Source: Actinomycetales bacterium
GTDB lineage: Bacteria; Actinomycetota; Actinomycetes; Actinomycetales; CAVURS01
Direction of reading: 5' to 3'
Length of the DNA: 64,000 nt
Assembly: GCA_045807245.1 (NCBI GenBank)
Contig: JBJMHS010000036.1
Coordinates: forward strand, 303 to 64,302
Position numbers and translations under genes: made by a program. A model generated the notes under the pieces. The model saw nothing but the letters and a program-made list of their open reading frames with translations, did not search any database and was not told the origin of the DNA. This document shows positions 4,951-20,811 of the stretch, one piece after another; the first letter of the stretch is position 1, and the number at the start of each line of letters is the position of its first letter.

Positions 4951-7130
4951 GCGTCGATGCGCTCCCGGTCCAGCTCGCCCGCCCCCGCCACCAGGAAGTC
5001 CTTGCGCGGCGCCACGTCACTGCCCATGAGCAGGTCGAAGATCTGGTCGGCTCGCTCGGCATCGGCCAAGGTGACGCGGCGCAGGGTCCGGTGCCGGGGG
5101 TCCATGGTCGTGACGGCCAGCTGGTCGGCGTCCATCTCGCCCAGGCCCTTGTAGCGCTGCAACGGCTCCTTCCACCGCTGACCCTTGCGCACGAGGTCGG
5201 CCTGCACCTTGCGCAGCTCGGCCTCCGAGTAGGTGTACACGTACTTGTCCTGGCCCTTCTTGGGGCTCACGACCTCGAGCCGGTGCAGCGGCGGGACGGC
5301 GGCGTACACGCGCCCGTCATCCACCAGCGGGCGCATGTACTTGAAGAACAGAGTGAGCAGCAGCGTCCGGATGTGCGCGCCGTCGACGTCGGCGTCGGTC
5401 ATCACGATCACCTTGCCGTAGCGGGCGGTGTCCAGGTCGAACGTCCGCCCCGACCCGGCCCCGATGACCTGGATGATCGCCGCGCACTCCGCGTTGCGCA
5501 GCATGTCCGCGATCGACGCCTTCTGGACGTTGAGGATCTTGCCTCGGATCGGCAGCAGGGCCTGGTACTCCGAGCTGCGGGCCAGCTTGGCGGTGCCCAG
5601 GGCGCTGTCGCCCTCGACGATGAACAGCTCGCTGCGCCCTACGTCGTCAGTGCGGCAGTCGGCGAGCTTCGCGGGCAGCGACGAGGACTCGAGCGCGTTC
5701 TTGCGGCGCTGCGTCTCCTTGTGCTGGCGCGCGCTGACCCGCGCCTTCATCTCGGCGACGACCTTCTCCAACAGCGCCGCCGCCTGGTGCTTCTCCCCGC
5801 GCTTGGTCGAGGTGAGATGCCGGGTGAGCTCGCGTTCGACGATCTTGGCGACGATGCCGCGCACGGCGCTCGTGCCGAGGACCTCCTTGGTCTGGCCCTC
5901 AAACTGCGGCTCGGCCAGCCGGACGGTGACGACCGCCGTGATCCCGGCCAGGACGTCCTCCTTGTCCAGCCGGTCGTCCTTGCCGCTGACCTTGAGCCGG
6001 CGGGAGTTCAGCTCCACCTGGCGCTTGAACGTCTTCAGCAGGGCGGCCTCGAACCCGGCCAGGTGGGTGCCGCCCTTCGGCGTCGCGATGATGTTGACGA
6101 ACGAGCGCACGGCCGTCTCGTAGCCCGTGTCCCAGCGCACCGCGATGTCGACCGTGCACTCGCGCTCGACCTCGGTCGCCGTCATGTGGCCCCGCTCGTC
6201 CAGGACCGGCACCGTCTCGCGGAAGTGGTCCGAACCGGACAGCCGCCAGGCGTCGGTGACGGCGTCCCCCGAGCCCAGGAACTCGACGTACTCCACGATG
6301 CCGCCGCGGTGACAGAACGTCTCCTCGTGCGGTCCGTCGGCCCCCAGGGTGCCGGGCAGGCCACGCTCGTCCCGCAGCGCGATGGTCAGGCCGGGCACGA
6401 GGTACGACGTCTGCCGGGCCCGGGTGACCAGCTCGTCGTAGCTGAACTGGGCGTCCTTGAGGAAGATCTGCCGGTCGGCCCAGTACCGCACCCGGGTGCC
6501 GGTGACGCCGCGCTTGGTCCGCGCGACGACCCGCAGCTCCGAATGGTCGACGTACGGCGCGAAGGTCGCGTCCGGCGACGGGCTTTTGCGGCCGTCCGCG
6601 AACTCGCCGGGCTCGCCGCGCCGGAAGCTCATGGCATGGGTCTTGCCGCCCCGGTCCACTTCCACGTCGAGCCGGGCGGACAGGGCGTTGACGACACTGG
6701 CGCCTACGCCGTGCAGGCCGCCCGACGCGGTGTACGAGCCGCCGCCGAACTTTCCACCTGCGTGCAGCTTCGTGAACACGACCTCGACCCCCGAGAGGCC
6801 CGTCTTGGGCTCCTCGTCCACCGGGATGCCACGCCCGTCGTCCCGCACCTCGACCGAGCCGTCGGCCAGGAGCTGGACCTCGATCCGGTCGGCGTGGCCG
6901 GCCAGTGCCTCGTCGACGGAGTTGTCGATGATCTCCCACAGGCAGTGCATCAGCCCCCGGGAGTCGGTCGACCCGACGTACATGCCCGGCCGCTTGCGAA
7001 CCGCCTCCAGCCCCTCCAGCACGGACAGGTGCCGGGCGGTGTAGTCGGACTCCACCGACACCCGGGCCCGGCCGGTGCGGGAGGTGCGTACAGCGGTACG
7101 GCTCACAGGCTCGGTCGGCTGGACAGCCAC
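4947..7130 (-). CDS. parE: DNA topoisomerase IV subunit B (GyrB/ParE family)
   Basis: LEGLEAVRKRPGMYVG, EIIDNSVDE, LHAGGKF, VEGDSA, PIRGKILN, MTDADVDGAHI, RYKGLGEM. Confidence 0.92.
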   Translation of the reverse strand: MAVQPTEPVSRTAVRTSRTGRARVSVESDYTARHLSVLEGLEAVRKRPGMYVGSTDSRGLMHCLWEIIDNSVDEALAGHADRIEVQLLADGSVEVRDDGRGIPVDEEPKTGLSGVEVVFTKLHAGGKFGGGSYTASGGLHGVGASVVNALSARLDVEVDRGGKTHAMSFRRGEPGEFADGRKSPSPDATFAPYVDHSELRVVARTKRGVTGTRVRYWADRQIFLKDAQFSYDELVTRARQTSYLVPGLTIALRDERGLPGTLGADGPHEETFCHRGGIVEYVEFLGSGDAVTDAWRLSGSDHFRETVPVLDERGHMTATEVERECTVDIAVRWDTGYETAVRSFVNIIATPKGGTHLAGFEAALLKTFKRQVELNSRRLKVSGKDDRLDKEDVLAGITAVVTVRLAEPQFEGQTKEVLGTSAVRGIVAKIVERELTRHLTSTKRGEKHQAAALLEKVVAEMKARVSARQHKETQRRKNALESSSLPAKLADCRTDDVGRSELFIVEGDSALGTAKLARSSEYQALLPIRGKILNVQKASIADMLRNAECAAIIQVIGAGSGRTFDLDTARYGKVIVMTDADVDGAHIRTLLLTLFFKYMRPLVDDGRVYAAVPPLHRLEVVSPKKGQDKYVYTYSEAELRKVQADLVRKGQRWKEPLQRYKGLGEMDADQLAVTTMDPRHRTLRRVTLADAERADQIFDLLMGSDVAPRKDFLVAGAGELDRERIDA

Positions 7131-7399
7131 AGGCAGAGGTGCTCCAACTTCTCCAGATCAGCGCCGGAACGGCCGATGGGGTGACACGAGCCGGGTTGCT
7201 CGCCGTCAGGCTATAGCCGGTGGTGGACGATGAACGTCTGCGCCGCTGTACCAGGCGGGGCGTGTCCCGGCTCCTGAAACGCAGTTGCAGAGTCGTCCTG
7301 GACGGCTGAAGGTGAAGGAAGTCACGAACTCGGCCACCAGCCGGCGCCCGCGACGAGGCGGTTGTCCGCAGTCAGCGAACACCGCGCAGGTCCGACGTG

Positions 7400-7426
7400 G
7401 GAACGCAGCGGGATGGTTGACTGTTG
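7400..7426 (+). promoter_or_regulatory. SigR/SigH-type ECF sigma promoter GGAAC-N18-GTTG
   Basis: ggaac at 7400-7404, exactly 18 nt, gttg at 7423-7426, upstream of small Cys-rich ORF. Confidence 0.6.
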
Positions 7427-7483
7427 TGACAGGCGCACAGGGACTTCGGCCGGCCGGCCGGAACCCAGGAGGAGGAAGGTTTC

Positions 7484-7708
7484 GTGACAGCTGCACTTGC
7501 CAGTCCGCTCACCGCAGCCGACCGTTGCGACCGGTGTGGCGCGCAGGCCTACGTGCGGGTCACCCTCAACGGTGGCGCCGAGCTGCTGTTCTGCGCCCAC
7601 CACGGCCGGGTCCACGCTGACGCCCTGCGCCGAGTCGCAACGGACGTCCAGGACGAGTCGGACCGCTTGACCGAGGCCCCGGGATCCGCACCCGCTGAGG
7701 ACCGCTGA
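7484..7708 (+). CDS. Small conserved actinobacterial zinc-ribbon-like protein (DUF7455-like)
   Basis: LTAADRCDRCGAQAYVRV...LLFCAHH; AGGAGGA RBS; followed by a hairpin. Confidence 0.8.
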   Translation: MTAALASPLTAADRCDRCGAQAYVRVTLNGGAELLFCAHHGRVHADALRRVATDVQDESDRLTEAPGSAPAEDR

Positions 7709-7724
7709 GCCTCACTCCCACGTT

Positions 7725-7756
7725 CGAGAGGCCCCGGCAGATGCCGGGGCCTCTCG
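7725..7756 (+). terminator. Intrinsic terminator-like hairpin
   Basis: Perfect 15-bp inverted repeat cgagaggccccggca-ga-tgccggggcctctcg just after the stop codon. Confidence 0.75.
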
Positions 7757-7775
7757 CGTCTGCCGTGGTCCTCGA

Positions 7776-8258
7776 GTGAGTGCCGCCGGCGAGATCCTGG
7801 TCGGTGCCGTGATCGTGGTGGGGCTGGTCGGTGTGCTGGTGCCCGTGCTGCCCGGGCTCGCGCTGGTCTGGGCCGCGGTCCTGGTCTGGGCAATGGTCGT
7901 GCAGAGCACGGTCGGGTGGGCGGTCCTGGCCGGGGCGAGCGCCCTGCTGGTGGTCGGCACCGTGGTGAAGTACGTCGTGCCGGGCCGGCGGCTGCGCCGC
8001 GTCGGCGTGCCCTGGCGCAGTACCGCTCTCGGCGGGGCGCTCGCGGTCGTGGGGTTCTTCGTGATCCCGGTGGTGGGCCTGCTGATCGGGTTCGTGCTCG
8101 GCGTCTACCTGGCCGAGCGGCAGCGCCTCGGTGCACACACGGCGGCGTGGCAGTCGACCCGGCAGGCCCTGGCGGCGGCCGGGTGGAGCGTGCTGATCGA
8201 GCTGTTCGCAGGAATGGCGATGGCCGGCACCTGGCTGGCCGGGGTGCTGGTGGGCTAG
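7776..8258 (+). CDS. DUF456-family membrane protein
   Basis: GLVGVLVPVLPG, GFFVIPVVGLLIGFVLGVYLAE motifs. Confidence 0.8.
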   Translation: MSAAGEILVGAVIVVGLVGVLVPVLPGLALVWAAVLVWAMVVQSTVGWAVLAGASALLVVGTVVKYVVPGRRLRRVGVPWRSTALGGALAVVGFFVIPVVGLLIGFVLGVYLAERQRLGAHTAAWQSTRQALAAAGWSVLIELFAGMAMAGTWLAGVLVG

Positions 8259-8722
8259 GCGTCCCAGCCGCCGCCGCCGCGGCGGCGCTCCCAGCGCTGC
8301 TCCATGCGGGACATGAACCCACCGGAGCCACGGTTGGCGCGGCCCTTGCGACCACGGCGACCCTGGCCCTTGGCGCCGCGCTGGCCCTTCGGCACCCGCG
8401 GGTTGGTGGAGCCGTCAGCGGTGACGGTGCCGACCGGGCCGGCGTTCTTGCGTCGCGGAGGCGTCACGGCGAGCCAGGCCCCGGCCACCATCACGGCGAA
8501 CCCGGCGATGCCCAACGCCAGCCCGGCAGCGCCACCCCGGGCGACGCCCAGGACGACCAGACCGAGTCCGACGAGGACGCCGAGGGCGCCGAGAACCATC
8601 CGGCGGCGAGCCTTGGCCTTGGTGGTGGAACCGCGCATGGCGTTGGCGAACTTGGGGTCCTCAACAGACAGCTGCTGCTCCATCTGTTCGAGCAGCCGCT
8701 GCTCGTGCTCGGAGAGCGGCAC
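8255..8722 (-). CDS. DUF3040-family membrane protein
   Basis: (M)PLSEHEQRLLEQMEQQLSVEDPKFA, two TM helices, FMSRMEQRWERRR tail; GGGAGG RBS. Confidence 0.85.
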   Translation of the reverse strand: MPLSEHEQRLLEQMEQQLSVEDPKFANAMRGSTTKAKARRRMVLGALGVLVGLGLVVLGVARGGAAGLALGIAGFAVMVAGAWLAVTPPRRKNAGPVGTVTADGSTNPRVPKGQRGAKGQGRRGRKGRANRGSGGFMSRMEQRWERRRGGGGWDA

Positions 8723-8911
8723 GATGACCTCCCGCAACGACACAGTGGTGCCGACGCCTGGCGACACCAGGGGGTGACAGCTTCACAGAACTCATCGGCG
8801 CGTCACGCCCTTGGCCTAAGGATAAGTCGCCGCTGCGGAGTTCGATACCCGGACGGCCGGTCTGGAGATATCGGTCTGGTGTCGGGGCTGCGTCGATCCG
8901 CGGGCAGAACG

Positions 8912-10174
8912 TCACCCCGGTGCGTCCCGCTTGGCCTGGGCTGGGCCGTCACGGCGGTCCGGAACCAGGCTGGCCGGGCGCACCACACCGGCCCCGAACC
9001 GGGCGCTGGCCGCGTCCACAGCCCGGTCGGCCTCCCGCCAGCCGACCGGCCGGTCGTCCAGCGCCAGCTGGCGCGGTGCGCTGTCGGCCTCGAGCAGTCC
9101 CTCCAGTCGGACCCCGACCAGTCGCAGCCGGGCCCGCTGCAGGCCCAACCCGTCGTACAGGCTCCGGGCCGCGGCGTACACCTCACGCCCGGTGTCCGTG
9201 GCATCGCGCAGCGTCCGGGACCGGGTGATCGTCGTGAAGTCGGCGAACCGGATCTTGATCGAGACGGTGCGGGCGACCAACCCGTGCGTGCGCAACCGGG
9301 CCGCGGACCGCTCGGACAGCTTGAGCAGCTCGCGGCGGACTACGTCGGGGTCGTCCACGTCGCGGGAGAACGTCTCCTCGTGACCGATGCTGCGGTCCTC
9401 GACGACCGGCTCCACCGACCGCGGGTCACGCCCCCAGGCCAGCTCGTGCAGGTGGGCGCCGACCGCCTGACCCAGACCGCGCAACAAGGTGTCGCGCGGC
9501 ACGTGTGCGATGTCACCGACGGTACGCAGGCCGAGCCGATGCAGCGTCTCCTCGGTCTTGTCGCCGACCCCCCACAGGGCGCCGACCGGCAGCGGGTGCA
9601 GGAACGAGACGACCTGGTTCGGCGGGACGACGATCAGGCCGTCGGGCTTGGCCATCGAGGACGCGAGCTTCGCGACGAACTTGGTCGCGGCCACACCCAC
9701 CGAGCAGGTGATCCGTTGCTCGTCCGCCACGCGGTCCCGGATCAGCTGCCCGATCCGCGCCGGTGGCCCCAGCCGCCGGACCGCACCCGAGACGTCGAGG
9801 AAGGCCTCGTCCAGGGAGAGCGGCTCGACCAGCGGTGTCACGTCGGCGAACACGGCCATCACACCGGCCGACGCGGCCTGGTAGGCCTCGAAGTCCGGCG
9901 GCAGGACGATCGCCTCGGGGCACAGCCGGCGGGCCCGGCTCATCGGCATCGCCGCGTGGATCCCGAAGCGGCGGGCCTCGTAGGTCGCGGACAGCACCAC
10001 GCCCCTGCTGCCGCTGCCGCCGACGATGACCTCCCGCCCGCGCAGGTCCGGATGCTCGAGGAGCGACACGGAGGCATAGAACGCATCCATGTCGACGTGC
10101 AGGACCATGCAGGACGAGTCGTCCGCGCCGCTGTCGTCGAACGCGTCCGGCCGCTCGATCTGGCGCCGGCTCAT
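8912..10174 (-). CDS. dinB: DNA polymerase IV (Y family)
   Basis: HVDMDAFYASV, SATYEAR, SLDEAFLD, AKLASSMAKPDG; C-terminal QLALD clamp-binding-like motif. Confidence 0.93.
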   Translation of the reverse strand: MSRRQIERPDAFDDSGADDSSCMVLHVDMDAFYASVSLLEHPDLRGREVIVGGSGSRGVVLSATYEARRFGIHAAMPMSRARRLCPEAIVLPPDFEAYQAASAGVMAVFADVTPLVEPLSLDEAFLDVSGAVRRLGPPARIGQLIRDRVADEQRITCSVGVAATKFVAKLASSMAKPDGLIVVPPNQVVSFLHPLPVGALWGVGDKTEETLHRLGLRTVGDIAHVPRDTLLRGLGQAVGAHLHELAWGRDPRSVEPVVEDRSIGHEETFSRDVDDPDVVRRELLKLSERSAARLRTHGLVARTVSIKIRFADFTTITRSRTLRDATDTGREVYAAARSLYDGLGLQRARLRLVGVRLEGLLEADSAPRQLALDDRPVGWREADRAVDAASARFGAGVVRPASLVPDRRDGPAQAKRDAPG

Positions 10175-10210
10175 GGCCGCACCCCGGTGCGGGCCTTCGT
10201 CCGCGCCTGG

Positions 10211-10969
10211 CTACTCGGCAGTCCGCGGGCGCTCGCCGGTCGGCGCCGGTCGGTGGGCCCGCAGGTGCAGGGACGCGGACAGGCCGGCGTAGTCCGGTCC
10301 ACCGACCAACCGGGCGTCCAGGTCGTGCAGCCGGGCCGTCGCCGTCGGGTCGGTCTCGAGCAGCTGACCCGCGACCAGGTCGGCCAGGACGCGCACCCCT
10401 TCGACGCCGTCGACCTCCAGACCGGCCGACGCGACCAGTGCGACGATCCGGTCGCGGTCGAACCGCCGGACCAGGGGGTCGTGCTCGCCCCACCGGCCCT
10501 CCGGGTCGTCCAGGAGGGCCTGCGCGCGGGCCAGGTGGCCGGCCAGGGCAGCGCCGATGACCGCCGCGCTGCGTTGGGCCGCCAGCAGGCTGAGCCGTGC
10601 GCCGGGGCGCAGCGCCCGCGCGATGCCGGCCAGGGCGGTGCTGGGGTCATCGACGTGTTCCAGGACGCCATGGCACAAGGCCAGGTCGAACGACTCGTCG
10701 GCCACCTGCAGGTCGTCGGCGTCGGCCTGCCGGGCCACGATGAGGCGCTCCACGCCGGACTCGCTGGCCCGTCGGGCCAGGGCGGCCAAGGCGTCCGGGC
10801 TCGGGTCGACGACGGTGACGCGGTGGCCGAGCGCCGCCAGCGGAACGGCCAGGCCACCGGTCCCCCCTCCGACGTCGAGGACGTCGGCCGGCGGTGCGCC
10901 GGAGGCGCCGGAGCGGGGCAGCAAGGCGCGGACCGCGTCCCACAGCAACGCATCCGGCACGGCGACCAC
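10211..10969 (-). CDS. Class I SAM-dependent methyltransferase
   Basis: VLDVGGGTGG motif I; FDLALCHGVLEHVDDP. Confidence 0.85.
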   Translation of the reverse strand: MVAVPDALLWDAVRALLPRSGASGAPPADVLDVGGGTGGLAVPLAALGHRVTVVDPSPDALAALARRASESGVERLIVARQADADDLQVADESFDLALCHGVLEHVDDPSTALAGIARALRPGARLSLLAAQRSAAVIGAALAGHLARAQALLDDPEGRWGEHDPLVRRFDRDRIVALVASAGLEVDGVEGVRVLADLVAGQLLETDPTATARLHDLDARLVGGPDYAGLSASLHLRAHRPAPTGERPRTAE

Positions 10970-11026
10970 CCTAGTGACGTGTGCGGCGGCGGCTGCGGCT
11001 CAGCCGTCGAGTCGGCCGGTGCGCGG

Positions 11027-11599
11027 TCAGGCATCGAGCAGCTCGAGCAGCTTGGTCGTCGTACGCCAGTTGCGAGCGGTCGCGACCAGGGACTTCTGAC
11101 CGGTCACGCGCTCCCACCTCACGGCACCCAGCACGCTGACACCCATGCCGTTGGGCAGCCAGAGGTAGAGGTCGCGTCCGCCGCGGGCCAGAGCGAGCTG
11201 CTCCGGCTCGTACGTCGCGGGGTCGAGGCCGGCGAGGTCGCTCTTCGTCAGCTGGTGGGACAGGAAGACGCAGAACAGCTTGGTCGGGTCGGACTCGCGG
11301 TCGGTGAACGGGTTGGCCTTCAGCAGTGCGGCGAGCTCCGAGCGGGTCCGGACGACGACGCGCACGTCCATGCCGAGGTGCTCGGTGATCGCGTCGTCGA
11401 TGTCCGCCGCCAGCCGCTCGGCTGCCGCAGCCGTGGCCGCGGCATCGGCGGAGAACACGACCTGACCGCTGCGCAGGTAGGTCTTCACGTCGTCGTACCC
11501 GAGACCCTCCATGACCCGCGCGAGCTCGGCCATCGGGAGCTGCTTGTTGCGGCCGACGTTGATCCCCCGCAGCAGCGCGACGTAGCGGTTCGCGGTCAT
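11027..11599 (-). CDS. DUF1697-family protein
   Basis: YVALLRGINVG, VKTYLRSGQVVF, TARNWRT. Confidence 0.85.
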   Translation of the reverse strand: MTANRYVALLRGINVGRNKQLPMAELARVMEGLGYDDVKTYLRSGQVVFSADAAATAAAAERLAADIDDAITEHLGMDVRVVVRTRSELAALLKANPFTDRESDPTKLFCVFLSHQLTKSDLAGLDPATYEPEQLALARGGRDLYLWLPNGMGVSVLGAVRWERVTGQKSLVATARNWRTTTKLLELLDA

Positions 11600-11694
11600 G
11601 GTGCTCAGCCTCCCAGCCCGGTCCGTCAATGAGCGTGCATCACGGCCAGGTGATGAGTGGTGCGTGGTTGGCGTTGCCTGGCTCTTGCGAGTGG

Positions 11695-14600
11695 CTAGTG
11701 GCCGGAGCTGCCCGGGCTGGCGTGCCAGAGCTTGCGGGGAGCCTTCGGGTCGCGCAGCGCGTCCTGGGCTTCGTCGACCGTGCGGCCCAGCTTGCGGGCG
11801 TCCTTGACGTCCTCACCGGGCGGGCGCACATCGGCGTACGGCGACTGCTTGAAGCCGCTCGCGTGCACCAGCACCCGCCGATGCCGGACCCCGCCTCCCA
11901 TGCCACCCGCCGCCGGGCCGTCCTCGTCGGCCGGACCCGGTGGGGCGCCGGCCATGACGGGCCGGGAGGACCGGCTGGCCGCTGCCCCGGCGATGGCCGA
12001 AGCGGAGAAGGGCGCGTACTCCTGGTTCTCCCGCACGGCCCGGGCCCGCTCCTCGGCCGTCGCCAGCGTCGCCTGCACCGCCGGCAGGCCGCCGTCGCAC
12101 CACGCCTCCCACAGTGAGGACAGCTCCCAGGCGCCCGTGGCCCGCAGCGAGACGCCGCGCGGCCCGGTACGACGCAGGATGCCCCGCACGAGCAGCAGCC
12201 AGGAGTGGAAAACCGTTGCGGCGTAAGGACCTTGGACATCCTCGAAGAACGTCGCATCCACCGGGCCGGTGGCATCGTCGAGAGTCAGGAAGACGACCCG
12301 GCGCCCGGACCGGACCGGAGGTGTCTGGGTGGCGACCTTCACCCCGGCGACGAGCAGCTCGGCCCGGCTCCGCTGGCCCAGGATGTCCTTGGACCGCGTG
12401 ATGCCCAGCGCGTCCAGCAGCGGCTCGTAGAACTCCAGCACGTGGGCGCTGGCGTCCAGGCCGAGCACCTCGAGCTCGGCCTTGACCCGTTCCGCGCCGG
12501 ACATCTCCGGCAGCCCGGTGGACCGCGTCTCGTTCGGTGCGTCGCCGAGGTCCAGGGTCAGCTGGACGCTCTGCTCGGCCGCCGGGACGGCCGCCCGCGG
12601 CGCCTGGGACTGGGCCGCTGCCATCAGCCGGACGTCCCGCGTGTCAGCCCAGTCGGCCCACTCCCCGCGTCCGGACCGCGGTCCGGTGCTGCTGCCCGAG
12701 CCGTCCCAGCGCGCATCCCCCTCCGGGTCCACCCCGGCCCGCGGCAGCGACCGCTCCGGCGCGTCCAGGTCCGGCCGGGCCGGCTGCGCCTTGTGCGCCG
12801 ACGGCCGGGCACTCCGCGCACCGGCCCGGGTCGCCGAGCGCGCCGTCGCCCGGCTCCAGCCGTCCAGCTCGACGACCTGCAGGAGCAGGTCACGCCGGGT
12901 CACCCGCCCACGTCGTCGCAGCGGCAGCCCGGCGGTCGGCCCGCCCAGGCCGTAGAGGCCGTCGAAGGCGCCGGCCACCACCAGCCGCTCGACCACCGGG
13001 CGGGAGACCTGCGCGCGGTGCCAGAAGTCGGCCAGTGAGTGGTACGGCCGGCCGGCCACGATCCGCTGCACCTCGGCCGCGCTGATGCCTTTGACGTCGG
13101 CCAGTGAGAGCCGGATGCCGTAGGCCCGGCCGTCCGGCAGGTCCGGCGGCGGCGCCGGCCGTGGACCCCCGTCGGGCATCAGGGGGCCGGCCTCGACCTG
13201 GCCCAGGATCGCGGGCGGCGGCTCGTCCCACGAGGCGACCTTCTCCACCCGGTAGGTGTCGTCGGAGGCGTTGACGTCCAGGCTCAGCACGGCGATCCCG
13301 AGGCTGCGGGCGTCGTCCAGGATGAGCCGCTTCGGATACATGCCGGGGTCATGGGTGAGCACCCCGGCGAGGAACGCCGCCGGATGATGCGCCTTGAGCC
13401 AGGCGGACTGGTACGTCGGGAGGGCGAACGCCGCCGCATGGGCCTTGCAGAAGCCGAACGAGGCAAAAGCCTTGAGTACCAACCAGATCCGCTCGACGTC
13501 GGCGGCACTGTAGCCCCGCGACCGGGCCAGCGGCCGCCACCACGCCTCGACCTCCCGCTGACCGGCCGGTGACCCGAGCGCGCGGCGCACCTCGTCGGCC
13601 TCGGCGAGCGTCACCCCCGTGGTGACCGCGACGATCTGCAGCACCTGCTCGTGGAACACCACGACGCCGTGTGTCTCGCGCAGGGCCGGCTCCAGGCTGG
13701 GGTGGAGGTACTCGGTGCCGCGCCAGCGCTGCCGGGCCAGCAGGAACGGCGTCACCATGTCGGACTTCACCGGACCGGGGCGGAACAGCGAGATGTCGAT
13801 GATGAGGTCGCCGAAGGTCTCCGGCCCGAACTTGCCGACCAGCTCGCGCTGGCCGGGCGACTCGATCTGGAAGCAGCCCAGGGTGTGGGTCGACCGGATC
13901 AGCCGGAACGTCGCCTCGTCGTCGAGCGCGACGCAGTCCCGGTCGTCGAGGTCGACCTGCACCTGGTCGACCCGCTCGACCTCCTGCACCGCGTGGGCCA
14001 TGGCGGACTGCATCCGGATGCCGAGCACGTCGAGCTTGAGCAGCCCCATGGTCTCGACGTCGTCCTTGTCGAACTGGCTCATCGGGAACCCGATCCAGCT
14101 CGCCTCGACCGGGGTCCGGTCCAGCAGCGAGCCGTCGGAGAGCACGACGCCGCACGGGTGCAGGGCGACGTGACGGGGCAGGCCGTCGAGCCGTTCGACC
14201 AGCTCGAAGAGCAGGTCGAGCCGGGGCGCGGACAGGCCGCTCGCCTGCAGCTCGGGCAGCTCGGCGATCGCGTGGCGCGCGTCGCGGGCCCGGATGTGCG
14301 GGAAGGCCTTGGCGATCGCGTCGATCTCGACCGGCGGCAGGCCCAGGGCGGCACCCACGTCACGGATCGCGTGCCGGACCCGGTAGGTGTCCATCATCGA
14401 CACGCAGGTCACCCGCTCGCCCCCGAACCGGGCCAGGACCTTCTCGTAGACCTCGGTCCGCCGCGCGGACTCCACATCGACGTCGATGTCCGGGAGCTGG
14501 GCCCGCAGCGGTGAGCAGAACCGTTCCATCAGCAGGCCGTGCTCCAGCGGGTCGACACCGGAGATGCCGAGCAGGTAGTTGACCAGGCTGCCCGCGCCGG

Positions 14601-15915
14601 AGCCGCGGGCCGCCACCCGGACGTCCAGGTCGCGGATCAGGTCGCAGACCGCCGCCACGGTCAGGAAGTACGTCGGGTAACCGAGCCGGGCCACGATGCC
14701 GAGCTCGTCCTCGAGCCGGGTCCTGATCGCCCGGACCTCGCGCTCCGCACGGCCCGGGTAGCGCATCCCGACCGCGCCCTCGCAGCGGGCTCGCAGCACC
14801 GCATCGGCGTCGTCGTCCGGGGTCAGGCCGAGCACCTCGGGCTCGGGCAGGTGGACCGAGCCGATACCCAGATCGGCGTACGGGTCCAGGACGCACCGGT
14901 CGGTCAGGCGCAACGTCTCGTCCAGGAGCGCGTGGACCTCCTCGCGTCCTGACCCGTGGGGCGCGCCGGCAGCAGCGACGACCTCCTCGGCCACCCGGGC
15001 CATCTCGGCCCCCGACCGCAGGTGCCCGGCCGCCGTCACCCGGTCCAGGTGCCGGGTGTCGAGGGCCACCAGCCGCCGCGCGGCGTCGAGTACGTCGACC
15101 GTGGCGGCGCCGCCGGGGTCGGCGTGCCGCACGGCGTTCGTCAGCACCGCGGGTACGCCGGCCTGCCGGGCCAGCGCTAGCAGCCGGGCGGCGTGTCCCG
15201 CGCTGGCCGGGCTGCCGGGCGGTCCGCCGTGACAGACGACCTCGAGGGCGAGCGACCCCGGCGGCAGCGCCGCCTGCCACCGGCGCAGCTCATCGTGCGC
15301 CCGGTCGGTCCGGCCGGCGAGCAGCGCCTGTCCCACCGTCGAGGCCGGCCCCAGCAGGACGACGAGTGCGGCCGTACCGCTGACCGGGTCGAACGCGTGC
15401 TCGGCGACCAGGTCGAGGTCGGCGACCGGCGAGCCGCGCTGGCCGCCCAGCTGCGTCGCCGACACGAGTCGGCACAGCCGGGCCCAACCTCGGGCCGGCG
15501 CCAGCCCTGTGCCGGAACCAGTGCCGGAACCTGTGTCGAAACCTGTGCCGGAACCGGTGCCGGAACCGGTGCCGAGCGCGAGCACCGTGACCCGGGGATG
15601 CCGCGGGTCGACCTCGGCCCCACCTCGCACCGGTGTCCGGGCTCCCGGCGTACGGGGTGTCGCCTGGGCTGCCGAGGTCCGTGGCGCGTCAGGAACCGGC
15701 CGGACGGCGAGGTCGACCCCCAGGATCGGCGCGACCCCGCTGCGCTGGCAGGCCCGTACGAACCGGACCGCGCCGTACAGCCCGTCCCGGTCGGTGAGCG
15801 CGAGCGCGGGCTGGCCCAGCTCGGCCGCCCGCTCGACCAGGGCCTGGGGCGACGAGGCGCCGTGGCGCAAGGAGTAGCCCGACGACACGTGGAGGTGGGC
15901 GAACCGGGTAGTCAC
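11695..15915 (-). CDS. dnaE2: Error-prone DNA polymerase III alpha subunit (DnaE2 type)
   Basis: PHP domain FAHLHVSSGYS/LALTDRDGLYG; ARGSGAGS; catalytic PDIDVD; LKLDVLG; OB-fold VVFLTLDD; LexA box upstream of its operon. Confidence 0.92.
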   Translation of the reverse strand: MTTRFAHLHVSSGYSLRHGASSPQALVERAAELGQPALALTDRDGLYGAVRFVRACQRSGVAPILGVDLAVRPVPDAPRTSAAQATPRTPGARTPVRGGAEVDPRHPRVTVLALGTGSGTGSGTGFDTGSGTGSGTGLAPARGWARLCRLVSATQLGGQRGSPVADLDLVAEHAFDPVSGTAALVVLLGPASTVGQALLAGRTDRAHDELRRWQAALPPGSLALEVVCHGGPPGSPASAGHAARLLALARQAGVPAVLTNAVRHADPGGAATVDVLDAARRLVALDTRHLDRVTAAGHLRSGAEMARVAEEVVAAAGAPHGSGREEVHALLDETLRLTDRCVLDPYADLGIGSVHLPEPEVLGLTPDDDADAVLRARCEGAVGMRYPGRAEREVRAIRTRLEDELGIVARLGYPTYFLTVAAVCDLIRDLDVRVAARGSGAGSLVNYLLGISGVDPLEHGLLMERFCSPLRAQLPDIDVDVESARRTEVYEKVLARFGGERVTCVSMMDTYRVRHAIRDVGAALGLPPVEIDAIAKAFPHIRARDARHAIAELPELQASGLSAPRLDLLFELVERLDGLPRHVALHPCGVVLSDGSLLDRTPVEASWIGFPMSQFDKDDVETMGLLKLDVLGIRMQSAMAHAVQEVERVDQVQVDLDDRDCVALDDEATFRLIRSTHTLGCFQIESPGQRELVGKFGPETFGDLIIDISLFRPGPVKSDMVTPFLLARQRWRGTEYLHPSLEPALRETHGVVVFHEQVLQIVAVTTGVTLAEADEVRRALGSPAGQREVEAWWRPLARSRGYSAADVERIWLVLKAFASFGFCKAHAAAFALPTYQSAWLKAHHPAAFLAGVLTHDPGMYPKRLILDDARSLGIAVLSLDVNASDDTYRVEKVASWDEPPPAILGQVEAGPLMPDGGPRPAPPPDLPDGRAYGIRLSLADVKGISAAEVQRIVAGRPYHSLADFWHRAQVSRPVVERLVVAGAFDGLYGLGGPTAGLPLRRRGRVTRRDLLLQVVELDGWSRATARSATRAGARSARPSAHKAQPARPDLDAPERSLPRAGVDPEGDARWDGSGSSTGPRSGRGEWADWADTRDVRLMAAAQSQAPRAAVPAAEQSVQLTLDLGDAPNETRSTGLPEMSGAERVKAELEVLGLDASAHVLEFYEPLLDALGITRSKDILGQRSRAELLVAGVKVATQTPPVRSGRRVVFLTLDDATGPVDATFFEDVQGPYAATVFHSWLLLVRGILRRTGPRGVSLRATGAWELSSLWEAWCDGGLPAVQATLATAEERARAVRENQEYAPFSASAIAGAAASRSSRPVMAGAPPGPADEDGPAAGGMGGGVRHRRVLVHASGFKQSPYADVRPPGEDVKDARKLGRTVDEAQDALRDPKAPRKLWHASPGSSGH
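15506..15574. repeat. 12-bp in-frame tandem repeat (about 5.8 copies, cc[t/a/g]gtgccggaa) encoding a (GTGS)n loop in the DnaE2 PHP domain
   Basis: cctgtgccggaa ccagtgccggaa cctgtgtcgaaa cctgtgccggaa ccggtgccggaa ccggtgccg. Confidence 0.85.
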
Positions 15916-15937
15916 CGGCTGATCACCAGACGACCGG

Positions 15938-16375
15938 TCAGGGCAGGGCTGGGCGCAGGACGGGCAGGGCCGGATGCCGTTCCAGCCCGAGCGCGTCCTC
16001 CACGAGCTGGACGAAGGTCTCGGCTGCCCGTAGCTGGTCGTCGGCCTCCCGGACGGGGAGCGCCTCGACCCGGCCGGCCTCCACGGCCGCCCGGCGGTCC
16101 GCACCGGCGGCGAAGAACGCGGCCCACTCGGTGAGCTCGGGCGCCACGCGGGGCAGCACCTCCCAGACACTGCGCGGACCGGCACCCCGGCCACTGGGCC
16201 GGCCGCGCGTGGCCAGGACGGCCGCCGCCGCCCGGAGCGCGGACAGGTGAGCGGCGACGTACCGCTCTCCCGCATGGACAGCCATGGCTGCAGCGAACAG
16301 GCCGGCCCGGGACCGCTCGAGCAGCTCGACCGCGGGGACGGGAACCGGCGCTGCCGCCGTCGCCAGCCCGGCCAT
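15938..16375 (-). CDS. SAV_6107-like HEPN domain protein
   Basis: ERYVAAHLSALRAAAAVLA..SVWEVLPRVAPELTEWAAFFAA..READDQLR; all-helical; typical actinobacterial context. Confidence 0.8.
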   Translation of the reverse strand: MAGLATAAAPVPVPAVELLERSRAGLFAAAMAVHAGERYVAAHLSALRAAAAVLATRGRPSGRGAGPRSVWEVLPRVAPELTEWAAFFAAGADRRAAVEAGRVEALPVREADDQLRAAETFVQLVEDALGLERHPALPVLRPALP

Positions 16376-16788
16376 CAGTCGGCGACCTGGAGCAGGCGCC
16401 AGTGCGCCTTGACGTCATCGGGCTCGCCCAGACCGACCCCCAGGTCGGCCCGGTCGTCCGGTGGGTCACCCGCGTCGTCGACGAGGTCACGGCCCAAGTC
16501 GTAGACCCCCACCCGGTCGCTGCGCCCGGCCCCGGCCTCGACCCGCCAGATCTCGCGCTCGAGGACGTCCGCCATCGCGGCCTCCGGTCCGCTGTCGAAG
16601 TCCGGCGGTCCCTCCGGATCCAGCCCGAGCAGCCGGGCGGTGGCACCCTCCAGCCACCAGGCCCGGCGCTCGCGCCAGTGCCCGAGAATCGACCGGACCG
16701 AGTAGACGCGGCCGCGCCAGAGGAAGAGAGCCGGTCCGCTGGCGGGGCTCTCTCGTACCTCGATGACCTCGTCGTAGCGCCGAACCAT
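16375..16788 (-). CDS. DUF6504-family protein
   Basis: MVRRYDEVIEV..PALFLWRGRVYSV..HWRERRAWW..EREIWRVEA..GVYDL..WRLLQVAD. Confidence 0.8.
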   Translation of the reverse strand: MVRRYDEVIEVRESPASGPALFLWRGRVYSVRSILGHWRERRAWWLEGATARLLGLDPEGPPDFDSGPEAAMADVLEREIWRVEAGAGRSDRVGVYDLGRDLVDDAGDPPDDRADLGVGLGEPDDVKAHWRLLQVAD

Positions 16789-16837
16789 CAGCCCACCCCT
16801 TCTGTGTCTCGAGACGGATGCCTCGAACCATCGATCC

Positions 16838-16882
16838 CTGAACATCTCGAACATCCCGAGCATCGTGAACATCTCGAACGTG
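16838..16882. repeat. Five tandem 9-bp repeats (NNGAACATC-like) running into the SOS box
   Basis: ctgaacatc tcgaacatc ccgagcatc gtgaacatc tcgaacgtg. Confidence 0.8.
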
Positions 16883-16889
16883 TGTTCGA
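16874..16889. promoter_or_regulatory. LexA (SOS) box, actinobacterial consensus TCGAAC-N4-GTTCGA
   Basis: tcgaac gtgt gttcga, perfect match, upstream of DUF6504-HEPN-dnaE2. Confidence 0.9.
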
Positions 16890-16897
16890 ATACTTCG

Positions 16898-16919
16898 ACA
16901 GTACACCCGGGCCCCGACA
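16898..16919 (-). promoter_or_regulatory. PafBC-type (RecA-NDp) DNA-damage promoter TGTCGG-N10-TANNNT
   Basis: Minus strand TGTCGG ggcccgggtg TACTGT, immediately upstream of the LexA box. Confidence 0.75.
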
Positions 16920-16945
16920 GGGCGTCAACCGCTACTCTCCGCCGC

Positions 16946-17461
16946 ATGACCGACTCTCCCGAGCGCTCGGCCGAGGCCCTGCTCTCCCATCCCGGCGTCG
17001 TCCGGGTGACGGAGGCGCTGCGCGCGGCCGGCTCCGGGGACCAGGTCCGGATCCTGGACGTGACGGCCCGCACCGCGCAGGACGCAGCGGACGCGCTCGG
17101 CGTCGAGGTCGGCCAGATCGTCAAGTCCCTGGTGTTCACGACGCCCGGCGCGCACGGACCGGAGCCACTGCTCGTCCTGACCGCCGGAGAGCACCAGGTC
17201 GACGTCCACAAGGTCGCCGACCTGCTCGGTCTGGAGGCGCTCGGCCGGGCCGACGCGGACTTCGTCCGCCAGCACACCGGGTTCGCCATCGGCGGCGTCG
17301 CGCCGGTCGGGACGACATCGCCCATCCACACCCTCATCGACGTCGACTTCGCGCGGTACGACGTGATCTGGGCGGCGGCCGGACATCCGCATGCCGTCTT
17401 CCCCACGACGTACGAGGAGCTGCTGCGGCTCACCGCCGGCCATCCCGCCGAGGTCGCCTGA
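16946..17461 (+). CDS. YbaK/EbsC aminoacyl-tRNA editing family protein
   Basis: TAQDAADALGVEVGQIVKSLVF, TGFAIGGVAPVG, WAAAGHPHAVF; TACTCT -10 7 nt before the ATG. Confidence 0.88.
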   Translation: MTDSPERSAEALLSHPGVVRVTEALRAAGSGDQVRILDVTARTAQDAADALGVEVGQIVKSLVFTTPGAHGPEPLLVLTAGEHQVDVHKVADLLGLEALGRADADFVRQHTGFAIGGVAPVGTTSPIHTLIDVDFARYDVIWAAAGHPHAVFPTTYEELLRLTAGHPAEVA

Positions 17462-17462
17462 C

Positions 17463-18173
17463 GTGACGGGTGCGCGGGGGACGGCCGACCTGGTCGAGGC
17501 GGCGGTCCACGTCTTCGGTGTCCCCCGGCGGTCGATCCCGCGCGCCATGCTCCATGTCGGCCGCGACGGCCGGGCGCTGGCCTCCACACCCGGCCTCGCT
17601 TTCGGCCGCATCCTCGGCACCGGCGACGGCCGGTCCTTCACGGTGCGCGGCACCGACCTCCGGCACTGGGCCCTCGTCACCTCGTGGCGCGACGCGGAGG
17701 CGGCCCGCGCCTTCGAGCAGTCGCCCGTCGTCCGCGGCTGGGGCGCGATGAGCGAGGAGCGCCTGCTCGTCCGCCTGCGCCCGCTCACCTCGCGCGGGCG
17801 ATGGAGCGGCCGCGAGCCCTTCGGCGACCCCACGCCGTACCCGGTCACCGGTGCCGTCGCGAGCATCACCCGCGCCCGGATCGCTCCCCGCTCGATGGTC
17901 CGGTTCTGGCGGGCCGTGCCTGCGGTGGCCCGCGACCTGGCCGCGGTCGACGGGGTGCGCCTGGCCATCGGCATCGGTGAGGCGCCGGTGGGCTTCCAGG
18001 GCACCTTCTCGATCTGGGCGACCAGCGCCGCCGTCAGCGAGTTCGCGCACCACCGGTCGCCGCACCAGGTCGCGGTTCGGCGCAGCGACACGGAACACTG
18101 GTACGCCGAGGAGCTGTTCGCGCGGTTCGAGGTCCTCGCCGTCGAGGGCACGTACGCCGGCCGCACGCCGTAG
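17463..18173 (+). CDS. Spheroidene monooxygenase (CrtA)-like carotenoid oxygenase/hydroxylase
   Basis: PGLAFGRILGTG, SRGRWSG, ASITRARI, FWRAVP, GIGEAP..QGTFSIW, WYAEELFARF; carotenoid context; start uncertain. Confidence 0.7.
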   Translation: MTGARGTADLVEAAVHVFGVPRRSIPRAMLHVGRDGRALASTPGLAFGRILGTGDGRSFTVRGTDLRHWALVTSWRDAEAARAFEQSPVVRGWGAMSEERLLVRLRPLTSRGRWSGREPFGDPTPYPVTGAVASITRARIAPRSMVRFWRAVPAVARDLAAVDGVRLAIGIGEAPVGFQGTFSIWATSAAVSEFAHHRSPHQVAVRRSDTEHWYAEELFARFEVLAVEGTYAGRTP

Positions 18174-18202
18174 CGGGCGTTGGTCCGGGGAGGGGCGTCG
18201 CC

Positions 18203-18790
18203 ATGGGTGTCGAGCAGCTCGTCCCCTGGGTCTTCACGACCAGCTGGGCCAGCGGCGTCAACGCGTACGCGACCGTCCTCGTGCTGGGCCTGCTCGGCCG
18301 GTTCGCCGACGTGTCGGAGATCCCGGACGGCCTGACCAGGACCGACGTGCTGATCGCCGCCGCCGTCCTGTTCGTGGTCGAGTTCGTCGCCGACAAGATC
18401 CCCTACGTCGACTCGATCTGGGACGCGATCCACACCGTCGTCAGGCCGGTGGTCGGTGCCACGATCGCGGCCCTGCTGGCCGGCCAGGACACCACCCTGG
18501 GCCAGGCGTTCGCAGCGACGACGGGCGGGCTGGTGGCGCTGGCCAGCCACCTCGCGAAAGCGGGTCTGCGCGCCGCGGTGAACACGTCGCCGGAGCCGGC
18601 CAGCAACGTGATCGTCAGCTCGGCCGAGGACATCTCGGTGGCGGCGCTGGTGGCGCTCGCATCGGCCCACCCGTGGGTCTCGGCGAGCATCGCGGCCGCC
18701 TTGCTGCTGGCGACGACGGTGCTCGTGGTCAAGCTGTGGCGGCGGGTGCTCGCGTTCCGGGCCCGATGGCGCGGCCGCTGGGTGCAATGA
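18203..18790 (+). CDS. DUF4126-family membrane protein
   Basis: WASGVNAY, EFVADKIPYVDSIWD, NTSPEPASN..S.AED. Confidence 0.85.
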   Translation: MGVEQLVPWVFTTSWASGVNAYATVLVLGLLGRFADVSEIPDGLTRTDVLIAAAVLFVVEFVADKIPYVDSIWDAIHTVVRPVVGATIAALLAGQDTTLGQAFAATTGGLVALASHLAKAGLRAAVNTSPEPASNVIVSSAEDISVAALVALASAHPWVSASIAAALLLATTVLVVKLWRRVLAFRARWRGRWVQ

Positions 18791-19638
18791 CGCCACCACC
18801 GTCTCGCTCCCGTCGACTCCTGACCGGGTCGGCGGCCCTGGCCGGCGCGACCGTGCTGCTCCAGATCGCCTACCCGCTCACGAGCGACCGCCAGCTGGGT
18901 CGGCTCAGTGTGGTGACGGTCGTTGTCGCCTGCGGCGCCTGCGTGGTCCATGCGCTGGCCGAGTGGGGCCCGGTGCCGACAGTGGCCTTCACTGCGGTGG
19001 TCGTGGGCGGCGCCTTCGCCGTCGAGGCCCTCGGCGTCGCGACCGGCTTCCCGTTCGGTCACTACATGTATGCGCACAGCCTGGGTCCACTCCTGCTCGG
19101 CGTTCCACTGCTGGTGCCTCTGGCCTGGCTCATGATGGCCTACCCGTGCTTGCTGCTGAGCATCGAGCTGGCGCCGAACATCGTTGCGCCGCAACGCCTT
19201 CTGGCCACCACCGCCGTCTCAGCCCTGCTCGGCGGCGGCGCCATGGCGGCCTGGGACCTGTTCCTCGACCCGCAGATGGTGGCCGCCGGTCACTGGACCT
19301 GGCGCGACCCGACTCCGGCGCTGCCCGGGGTGGAGCGCGTTCCCCTCACCAACCTGGCCGGCTGGCTGCTCAGCGCGACAGTCCTCATGGCCGTGTCGAC
19401 CGCGCTGCTCCAGCGTCTGGGCACCTGGGCCGTCACCGGGCCGCTCGCTCGCCACCCGGACAACCGCCTGTCCTCGGCCACGCCGATGATCCTGCTCGGC
19501 TGGGCGTGGCTGGGCGGCATCGTGGCCAACGCGGTCTTCTTCGACCGGGCGGCCATCGCCGGCTGGGGCGGCCTGTTGCTCGGCGTACTGGTCCTGCCGT
19601 ACCTCGTCTCGGTCCTCGTCTCGGTCGGGGTGCGGTGA
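18787..19638 (+). CDS. cruF: Carotenoid 1,2-hydratase (CruF/DUF422 family)
   Basis: EALGVATGFPFGHYMY..LGP..GVPLLVPLAW, AWDLFLDP, VPLTNLAGW; ATGA overlap. Confidence 0.8.
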   Translation: MTPPPSRSRRLLTGSAALAGATVLLQIAYPLTSDRQLGRLSVVTVVVACGACVVHALAEWGPVPTVAFTAVVVGGAFAVEALGVATGFPFGHYMYAHSLGPLLLGVPLLVPLAWLMMAYPCLLLSIELAPNIVAPQRLLATTAVSALLGGGAMAAWDLFLDPQMVAAGHWTWRDPTPALPGVERVPLTNLAGWLLSATVLMAVSTALLQRLGTWAVTGPLARHPDNRLSSATPMILLGWAWLGGIVANAVFFDRAAIAGWGGLLLGVLVLPYLVSVLVSVGVR

Positions 19639-20783
19639 GCCGCATGACCCGCTCGCGGCTGGACCGCGCGGCTCGGCTCGCGACCATGACCGGCACCGCG
19701 GGCGCCCTGGCCCTCACCGCACACACGGCGATGAACCTGGCCCGCCTGCGACGCCCGGACCGCGACGCCGCCCCGGTTCGTGAGCCCGTGTCGGTGCTGC
19801 TCCCGGTCCGGGACGAGGCGCAACGGGTCGAGCCGGGCCTGCGGGCCCTGCTGGCCGCACTGGACCGGTGCGCCGCACCGGCCGAGCTGCTCGTCCTGGA
19901 CGACGGGTCGACCGACGGCACCGCTGACGTCGTACGCCGGGTGGCCGAGTCCCACCCCGGGCTGCGGCTGCTGACCGGCGAGCCGCTGCCACCGGGCTGG
20001 CTCGGCAAACCGCACGCCTGCGCTCAGCTGGCCGACGCGGCCTCGCCCGAGTCGACCGTCCTGGTGTTCGTCGACGCCGACACGGTGCTCGAGCCGTTCG
20101 CACTGAGCGCGGCGGTCGACCTGTTGCGGCGCAACGACCTGGACCTGGTCTGCCCCTACCCACGCCAGGTCGCCGAGTCCGTGGCTGAACGGCTGGTCCA
20201 GCCACTCCTTCAGTGGTCCTGGCTGACCACCCTGCCGCTGCGCCTGGCCGAGCGCTCGTCGCGGCCGTCATTGTCGGCCGGCAATGGTCAGTTCCTCGTC
20301 GTCGACCGGGCGACGTACCGGCGGGCGGGCGGTCACGCCGAGGTCCGGGGCGAGGTGCTGGACGACGTCGCCCTGGTCCGCGCGGTCAAGGCCGCCGGCG
20401 GCCGGGGCGGCATGGTCGACGGCACCGACCTCGCGAACTGCCGGATGTACCAGGGGTGGGCCGAGCTGCGCGACGGCTACGCCAAGTCCCTGTGGTCAGC
20501 CTTCGGTACGCCGAGCGGCGCCGCGGCCGTCAACGCCGGCCTCGTTCTCGTCTACGTCCTGCCGCCGCTCGCGGCCGTGCTGCGGCGGTCGCCCGTCGGA
20601 CTGGTCGGCTACGTCGCCGGCGTCGCAGGCCGGGTGCTGGTCGCGCGGCGTACCGGTGCCCGCGTGTGGCCGGACGCCCTCGCGCACCCGGCCTCGGTCA
20701 CCACCTTCGCCTGGCTCACCGCTCTGTCGTGGCGGCGTCACCGCCGCGGCGAGCTGACCTGGAAGGGCCGCCACCTCCCGTGA
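19635..20783 (+). CDS. GT2 glycosyltransferase, probable carotenoid glycosyltransferase (CruG/CrtQ-like)
   Basis: SVLLPVRDE, VLDDGSTDGT, GWLGKPHAC, FVDAD, GNGQF, CRMY, WKGR. Confidence 0.85.
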   Translation: MSRMTRSRLDRAARLATMTGTAGALALTAHTAMNLARLRRPDRDAAPVREPVSVLLPVRDEAQRVEPGLRALLAALDRCAAPAELLVLDDGSTDGTADVVRRVAESHPGLRLLTGEPLPPGWLGKPHACAQLADAASPESTVLVFVDADTVLEPFALSAAVDLLRRNDLDLVCPYPRQVAESVAERLVQPLLQWSWLTTLPLRLAERSSRPSLSAGNGQFLVVDRATYRRAGGHAEVRGEVLDDVALVRAVKAAGGRGGMVDGTDLANCRMYQGWAELRDGYAKSLWSAFGTPSGAAAVNAGLVLVYVLPPLAAVLRRSPVGLVGYVAGVAGRVLVARRTGARVWPDALAHPASVTTFAWLTALSWRRHRRGELTWKGRHLP

Positions 20784-20811
20784 GCGGGGCCCGCACCTAG
20801 ACTCGCGCGGC

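Follow-up and report, generated by a model that had tools for sequence, protein, structure and literature searches.

A predicted DnaE2B-PolY-[ImuB-C]-RecA mutasome operon with LexA and PafBC promoter signals and a resident HEPN gene in an Actinomycetales bacterium

Gene organization of the locus

A 64,000-nucleotide (nt) stretch of the genome of a high-GC Actinomycetales bacterium (GenBank assembly GCA_045807245.1, contig JBJMHS010000036.1, positions 303 to 64,302), hereafter called the window, contains a run of six open reading frames (ORFs), all on the minus strand at positions 8912-16788. They encode a DUF6504 protein, a HEPN protein, the polymerase DnaE2, a DUF1697 protein, a methyltransferase and the polymerase DinB. 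This run is analyzed here as a candidate damage-inducible operon for a mutasome, a translesion synthesis (TLS) machinery, that would work without ImuA and ImuB. The host genome amounts to 3.56 Mb in 89 contigs, and its completeness is rated 100%. The features of the locus are as follows, in the direction of reading.

16898-16919, minus strand: PafBC (RecA-NDp) promoter motif TGTCGG-N10-TA-N3-T, a perfect match to the consensus
16874-16889, strand not assigned: LexA (SOS) box, the perfect palindrome TCGAACACACGTTCGA, of the form TCGAAC-N4-GTTCGA
16375-16788, minus strand: DUF6504 protein, 137 residues (PF20114, E 2.6e-16)
15938-16375, minus strand: HEPN_SAV_6107 protein, 145 residues (PF18726, E 2.4e-34)
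11695-15915, minus strand: DnaE2 (DnaE2B-type), 1406 residues (best NCBIfam match PRK05672)
11027-11599, minus strand: DUF1697 protein (PF08002)
10211-10969, minus strand: class I S-adenosylmethionine-dependent methyltransferase (Methyltransf_11, E 7.7e-24)
8912-10174, minus strand: DinB (PolY; NCBIfam PRK03858)
8255-8722, minus strand: DUF3040 / SCO2097-family membrane protein (PF11239, NF058603)

The family labels of all six cassette ORFs passed the Pfam cut-offs. The DUF6504 and HEPN genes overlap by 1 nt in the sequence TGATG (gap -1), and the further gaps are 22 nt (HEPN to dnaE2), 95 nt (dnaE2 to DUF1697), 57 nt (DUF1697 to methyltransferase) and 36 nt (methyltransferase to dinB). An original prediction, made from the window itself, had described six co-oriented genes with gaps under 100 nt downstream of an SOS box, and the ORF map together with the perfect LexA box agrees with it. 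The DUF3040 gene begins 189 nt past dinB. As it is found downstream of the run in most relatives, it is the conserved downstream anchor of the locus. No Rfam match was obtained in nine loci scanned, and a simple scan for sigma-70 promoters and terminators in window positions 8200-17500 gave no match.

Relatives were drawn from an order sample of 41 genomes and a class sample of 201 genomes, the latter including two unpublished genomes. From the order sample 25 loci were fetched, 23 of them with a usable HEPN match. The class loci are 80 of 150 listed matches, picked for long contigs and family spread.

LexA and PafBC signals at the promoter

The LexA box lies 85 nt ahead of the DUF6504 start. 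Perfect TCGAAC-N4-GTTCGA sites occur only 4 times in the whole genome, this box included, and two of the other three are located just upstream of recA and lexA. The box also fits the consensus tCGAAC-N4-GNNCGa given for Streptomyces venezuelae (PMC9380542). Among the relatives, 74 of the 80 class loci and 22 of the 23 order loci have a box with no more than one mismatch ahead of the run, against a background of 0.007 per 700 nt.

A second signal, absent from the original prediction's account of the locus, stands 8 nt upstream of the box. It is an exact copy of the 22-nt PafBC consensus tGTCgg-N10-tA-N3-T (PMC8635444), and its 3' half is likely the -10 element. At one mismatch or fewer, the motif was found in 43 of 96 box-bearing relative loci, compared to 17 of 4800 random windows, and in 37 of those 43 its spacing to the box is 8-10 nt; the other 53 loci fall below the one-mismatch level. 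That the motif is a by-product of an ordinary -10 element was considered and rejected, as all nine positions are matched in 24 of the 96 loci and in 3 of the 4800 random windows. A tandem pair of WYL genes with PafB/PafC-like N-termini was also found, on contig C89; we take these genes to be pafB and pafC. Both features of a PafBC regulon, the exact promoter motif and a pafBC-like pair in the genome, are present in the sequence, as is the SOS box that marks the LexA regulon. The two predicted control signals are conserved at the locus far above background, and from them we infer that the cassette would be induced by DNA damage. The arrangement is the same as in mycobacterial promoters under PafBC and LexA in that an exact 22-nt PafBC consensus is stacked on an SOS box; it differs in that the dual control is predicted here, from sequence only.

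Several other observations were made on promoters of this type. In the Streptomyces-like loci L066-L069, which have the order HEPN-methyltransferase-DUF3040 and no LexA box, a common variant TGTCAG-N10-CA-N3-T is present; it carries 2 mismatches to the PafBC motif and taken by itself is not above background. Leader hairpins exist in many relatives (e.g. L031, L058, L063, L065 and L101), with loops like CTCGACCCC and GTGGGGAAGC and CTTCCCC downstream, and the hairpin loops and/or the CTTCCCC pattern were counted in 65 of 96 leaders. They were rejected as a part of this window, being absent from positions 16789-16873 and from four same-genus loci. Elsewhere in the genome, contigs C12, C13, C26, C40 and C73 (two) carry six almost identical promoters with the PafBC motif, all followed by the same start, which suggests a repeated damage-inducible gene family. 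Additionally, dnaE1 (contig C20) has a perfect PafBC motif 70 nt upstream of its match.

The two polymerases and the absence of imuAB

DnaE2 keeps the catalytic aspartates D477, D479 and D628, while the metal sites of its PHP domain are degenerate. Against its best NCBIfam match, the error-prone polymerase PRK05672, it scores 623 bits and does not reach the cut-off of 939. Its core shares 62-95% identity with the ImuB-C-linked DnaE2 proteins of the same cassette, 33-36% with 14 ImuAB-type DnaE2 proteins ending in RDF(R/C), and 32% with the DnaE1 of its own genome. The SRDF motif and the RDFR end are missing, and the C-terminus is HASPGSSGH. By these identities the cassette DnaE2 clade is distinct from the ImuAB-type DnaE2. 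Two side observations concern the same protein. Cassette DnaE2s have a conserved end H(S/A)SPGS(S/A)G (window 11695-11730) where the ImuAB-type has RDFR, possibly a different partner-binding end. A (GTGS)n-like low-complexity insertion occupies residues 114-137 of the PHP domain (window about 15500-15580).

DinB contains the catalytic motifs DMDAF (D28) and SLDE (from S120). It passed the NCBIfam Pol IV model PRK03858 with 399 bits against a cut-off of 367, and PRK02794 was also passed. A clamp motif, QLALD, is found at residues 369-373 and is followed by a C-terminal tail. The protein looks like an active-type Y-family polymerase by its motifs, and the original prediction of a DinB with intact catalytic motifs in the same run was correct.

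Over the whole genome, two DnaE genes and two Y-family genes exceed the cut-off. The second Y-family gene (366 residues) was examined as a candidate ImuB and rejected; it is an ordinary DinB with acidic catalytic motifs and no ImuB tail. Neither imuA nor imuB was found in the genome: six-frame ORFs searched with profiles for ImuA and for the C-terminus of ImuB, both built from relatives, gave nothing below E 0.06. A separate imuAB locus serving the cassette DnaE2 was likewise rejected, none being present in a genome rated complete. The lack of imuA and imuB that had been noticed within the window therefore extends genome-wide.

A side observation was made on recA (G000:C68:13126-15429; L276, L277). 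It lies in an open frame of 768 residues, into which about 355 residues are inserted in frame after model position 198; the insertion is probably an intein.

DUF6504 and the ImuB C-terminal domain

It had been proposed that DUF6504 resembles the C-terminal module of ImuB-like proteins. The PF20114 model matches the C-terminus, the last 80 or so residues, of all three alphaproteobacterial ImuB-type proteins examined (E 2e-4, 0.058 and 3.3e-4), which are Y-family proteins preceding an error-prone polymerase on plasmids. At the genome level, a PF20114 match over the cut-off was also obtained in the Caulobacter control genome. Moreover, when a trimmed alignment of 39 window-type DUF6504 proteins was compared to the alphaproteobacterial ImuB tails by hhalign, a probability of 81% and an E value of 1.2e-5 resulted. 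On this profile evidence DUF6504 is a free-standing homolog of the ImuB C-terminal domain (ImuB-C) and a predicted adaptor of DnaE2, as had been proposed. Descriptions of stand-alone ImuB-C domains date from 2013 (PMC3765255) and 2019 (PMC6511836).

Two results weaken the homology. All three alphaproteobacterial matches are under Pfam's curated cut-off, and the hhalign comparison with actinobacterial ImuB tails was not significant (3.6-3.7%, score 18.8; shuffles gave a mean of 11.9 and a maximum of 23.8). An AlphaFold2 (AF2) model of DUF6504 shows six beta strands at a mean confidence (pLDDT) of 78. It has no clear relative in the Protein Data Bank (PDB), the best Foldseek E value being 0.33 and the best VIA Z-score 5.5, and the ImuB tail is not among the solved sequences. 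ImuB-C was published as a new fold; this is consistent with, and not proven by, the lack of a clear solved relative of DUF6504. The resemblance thus stood for alphaproteobacterial tails by profile and was weak against actinobacterial ones. When longer relatives of DUF6504 were sought, three proteins came up; they are apparently mis-started ORFs with no fusion, which counts for little as evidence, and no protein of ImuB length is among the best 150 of 932 DUF6504 profile matches.

The HEPN protein

The AF2 model of the HEPN protein is all helical, with a pLDDT of 91.6. Its best fold match is AF_0298 (2hsb; Z 16.1, rmsd 2.2, 117 residues aligned), and the other top matches are the sacsin HEPN domain (3o10, Z 13.2), TT1696 and ST0689. 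Together with the PF18726 score over its cut-off, the 2hsb match places the protein in the HEPN superfamily. By sequence the protein had a single weak match in the PDB, and an Atlas search returned its own family; the best named matches of the HEPN alignment are mostly from Kineosporiaceae.

The residues conserved in the family are R38, H43, R48, W71, E83, W84, R95, R109, D112, D113 and R116. The original prediction had suggested that this protein could link damage-induced mutagenesis to RNA cleavage, or serve as a scaffold. Such a protein might be a damage-induced RNase with a shifted active site that slows translation or growth. In 110 of 116 sequences an R-x4-H pattern, corresponding to R38 (96%) and H43 (98%) in helix 2, is indeed present among the first 60 residues. 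Conservation extends to R95 and E99, the fold search also lists HEPN RNases at lower scores (Z 9.0-9.4), and the gene on the other side of the promoter, read away from it, is often a tRNA-editing YbaK gene. However, the pattern is in the second helix and not at the canonical C-terminal site. The R-x4-6-H motif expected at that site is not a conserved feature, as only 18 of the 116 sequences have any match to it beyond residue 70. In the family tabulation of PMC3710099, SAV_6107 is listed as a HEPN-M family without RNase motif. The top fold matches are the four named above, and no nucleotidyltransferase antitoxin gene stands between the six window genes. An RNase role is therefore very unlikely and the suggested link to RNA cleavage found no support; the protein is probably a co-induced SOS protein that is no RNase.

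The same family, PF18726, includes Cgl2169 of Corynebacterium glutamicum; these relatives are actinobacterial as well and lack a conserved canonical RNase motif (PMC3710099). The family entry in that source gives no gene context, whereas here the family is tied to a TLS polymerase operon and a LexA/PafBC promoter. Literature searches, with subscription journals mostly outside their reach, found no published link between HEPN, DnaE2 and SOS, and the searches run gave none between SAV_6107 HEPN and TLS polymerase operons or a LexA and PafBC promoter.

Distribution of the cassette among relatives

HEPN was found in 26 of the 41 order-sample genomes and 161 of the 201 class-sample genomes, nearly always as a single copy. 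The order imuB-C, HEPN, dnaE2, optional methyltransferase, dinB, DUF3040 is displayed by 18 of the 23 order loci and 42 of the 80 class loci. Not every gene of the window run belongs to this order. DUF1697 occurs in all 4 same-genus loci, in none of the 19 other order loci and in none of the 80 class loci; it is a genus-level insertion outside the conserved cassette, and its original placement in the cassette was rejected. The methyltransferase, which was also counted in, is present here and is an optional member among relatives (24 of the 42 full cassettes). It is also next to HEPN without polymerases in 6 of the 80 class loci, and its best NCBIfam match, CmoM, scores 83 bits, far below the cut-off of 366.

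The modules around HEPN vary. In 8 of 43 named loci with full flanks (of the 80 fetched), and additionally in L114, L116 and L122, imuA-imuB-dnaE2 follows HEPN instead, which fits interchangeable modules at the same position. HEPN stands alone behind a LexA box in 10 of the 80 class loci. One family has HEPN in 40 of 41 genomes. In 24 of its 25 best-scoring loci, the 1.5 kb around HEPN holds DUF3040 and no polymerase; the LexA box is kept in 23 of the 25 and a perfect PafBC motif in 18. In four small-genome members of that family with lower scores, the part scanned reads mraZ-DUF3040-HEPN-GNAT, and there is no box at one mismatch. This order matches C. glutamicum cgl2167-cgl2170, again a HEPN gene without polymerases, where Cgl2169 has been called a HEPN protein implicated in SOS (PMC12554045). 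Gene cg2381 of that species belongs to the LexA regulon and rises by log2 3.86 with ciprofloxacin (PMC5055667); judging from gene numbering, it is probably cgl2169.

The variation in modules bears on whether the two polymerases work together. They may share a promoter and act separately, DnaE2B with ImuB-C and DinB with RecA. PMC12926913 catalogues DnaE2B-[ImuB-C] and PolY-RecA each as a module of its own, in genome G013 imuB-C adjoins dnaE2 with the cassette DinB clade 585 kb away, and twelve class or order loci have HEPN-(methyltransferase)-dinB-DUF3040 without dnaE2. Against this stand the joint presence of imuB-C, dnaE2 and dinB in 42 of the 80 class loci and the published four-part models, which score 0.84-0.87 in the row for this module type (PMC12926913). 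Separate action is the less probable arrangement.

It can also be asked whether damage-inducible polymerases (DinB, DnaE2B or DnaE2A) use HEPN as an accessory subunit or a regulator, in the manner of UmuD, YqjX or ImuB-C. Each of the 42 full class cassettes has HEPN within the operon. Where imuA-imuB-dnaE2 replaces imuB-C and dnaE2B, HEPN is still at the head, and in reduced loci (L046, L050 and L053 among them) it is directly next to dinB. Its set of charged and aromatic residues is 94-100% conserved in 116 sequences. Its distribution speaks against this role. In 47 genomes selected by hand for a HEPN gene that is lone or missing, HEPN tracked neither polymerase clade; the thresholds were chosen once the scores had been seen, and 1 weak case was omitted. 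Among 30 HEPN-positive genomes, 22 have no match of at least 500 bits to the cassette DinB clade and 23 no match of at least 250 bits to the cassette DnaE2 PHP clade, and 7 of 16 HEPN-negative genomes carry the cassette DinB clade. In G215 HEPN is present with no DinB match at 1e-20, and G103, G293 and G296 have one DnaE only. A subunit role is accordingly unlikely, and the scaffold idea is weakened in its obligate form, as HEPN exists without either polymerase and the polymerases without HEPN. Because HEPN tracks neither clade and keeps the promoter when alone, it is best seen, from these gene contents, as the damage-inducible gene that stays at the locus while polymerase modules are gained and lost around it.

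Comparison with known mutasomes

According to PMC12926913 (NAR 2026), DnaE2B groups exist in genomes without ImuA/ImuB, and one of them, with an active PolY, stand-alone ImuB-C and RecA, is found only in Actinobacteria. This DnaE2B-PolY-[ImuB-C]-RecA module is computational only, with Tessaracoccus lapidicaptus as its representative, and AlphaFold models in the same source place ImuB-C on the PHP domain of DnaE2. With this module the present locus shares an actinobacterial host, a DnaE2 whose genome lacks imuA/imuB, a PolY of active type that carries a C-terminal tail, and an ImuB-C encoded on its own. As judged from sequence, a DnaE2 with intact aspartates is accompanied nearby by both a stand-alone ImuB-C and an active-type Y-family polymerase. 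The core matches the module because DUF6504 is an ImuB-C homolog and imuAB is absent. It adds one more case to a module that had been predicted in the literature and is no new system; the proposed DUF6504-DnaE2-DinB arrangement without ImuA/ImuB is supported. The differences are the inserted DUF1697 and the HEPN gene: the main text of PMC12926913 has no HEPN, and the examined part of its supplement has neither HEPN nor methyltransferase. The three T. lapidicaptus accessions given there are consecutive, which means that HEPN is absent or unannotated in that species.

The canonical ImuA'-ImuB-DnaE2 mutasome of Mycobacterium tuberculosis, Caulobacter and Pseudomonas shares LexA control, DnaE2, the ImuB-C domain and a Y-family scaffold with a clamp motif. 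Here, in contrast, there is no ImuA, the catalytic Y-family residues are kept, and ImuB-C is a separate gene and not fused to an inactive Y-family ImuB; DnaE2 differs in its end and core identity as described above. Streptomyces dnaE2-dinB2 (DnaE2B-iPolY-RecA) likewise comprises a LexA-controlled dnaE2 and a Y-family gene (PMC9380542), but it has an inactive PolY and lacks ImuB-C. The HEPN gene of Streptomyces-like genomes is located away from the polymerases, together with the methyltransferase and DUF3040. Streptomyces-like DnaE2s score 279-318 bits against the cassette PHP profile and all other classes of match at most 155. By identity and profile scores, the cassette DnaE2 is far from the ImuAB-type and close to the Streptomyces-like DnaE2.

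Neighbouring genes

A YbaK/EbsC-like tRNA-editing gene (window 16946-17461, plus strand) lies on the other side of the cassette promoter and is read away from it, as it is in many relatives. After DUF3040, window positions 4947-8258 hold DUF456, DUF7455 and a gyrB/parE-type gene, and not mraZ with a cell-wall cluster; the same neighbourhood of DUF3040 is found in same-genus loci, L052 and L135. On the plus strand at 17391-22323 lies what is presumably a carotenoid-cluster-like run (monooxygenase-like, membrane protein, glycosyltransferase, desaturase), in which the first gene was scanned and the other names are our assumption.

Discussion

The locus is best explained as a damage-inducible operon for a predicted two-polymerase DnaE2B-PolY-[ImuB-C]-RecA mutasome, with HEPN probably co-induced and likely not a required subunit; a probability of about 0.78 is assigned to this explanation. 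DNA damage would act on the same promoter in two ways, by RecA-driven cleavage of LexA and by activation of PafBC through single-stranded DNA (ssDNA). DinB would then dock on the beta clamp via QLALD, and its tail would bind RecA, so that RecA would replace ImuA. DUF6504 would bind the PHP domain of DnaE2 like the C-terminal barrel of ImuB; DinB and DUF6504 would thus form a split ImuB in which polymerase activity is retained. HEPN would most likely act in the wider SOS response as a dimer that binds nucleotides or nucleic acids and is no RNase.

Several observations weigh against this explanation. The DinB tail and the N-terminus of the RecA of the same genome are alike by eye, but a profile search with the tail left RecA outside the top 10, and the in-register score of the two was equalled or beaten by 12,893 of 5.05 million windows. 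DUF4113 matched only 1 of 71 DinB orthologs, at E 0.21. No LexA box at one mismatch precedes HEPN in the four small-genome and four Streptomyces-like loci. The position of HEPN between imuB-C and dnaE2, with the TGATG overlap, could mean more than shared control. Finally, a mutagenic role is not assured, because, according to work cited in PMC3919608, Streptomyces coelicolor needs a related DnaE2 neither for UV resistance nor for mutagenesis.

A bolder explanation would make the SAV_6107 HEPN an overlooked, near-universal damage-response effector acting on translesion polymerases, either as an accessory factor of the mutasome present in a given cell (DnaE2B/ImuB-C/DinB or ImuA/ImuB/DnaE2A) or as a nuclease whose active site has moved to R38-x4-H43. 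In that case the locus would be the ancestral dual-controlled mutagenesis operon of Actinomycetia, and canonical imuAB-dnaE2 cassettes would have been exchanged into it. This is a tentative and rather improbable proposal.

The two-polymerase explanation has several implications. The cassette is a clean single-locus example of an ImuA-free mutasome known from prediction, with one promoter that is separable into LexA and PafBC control, and the Pfam label DUF6504 is now tied to ImuB-C. HEPN ranks among the most persistent damage-promoter genes of Actinomycetia. If it acts on error-prone synthesis, it would be an added component of bacterial induced mutagenesis.

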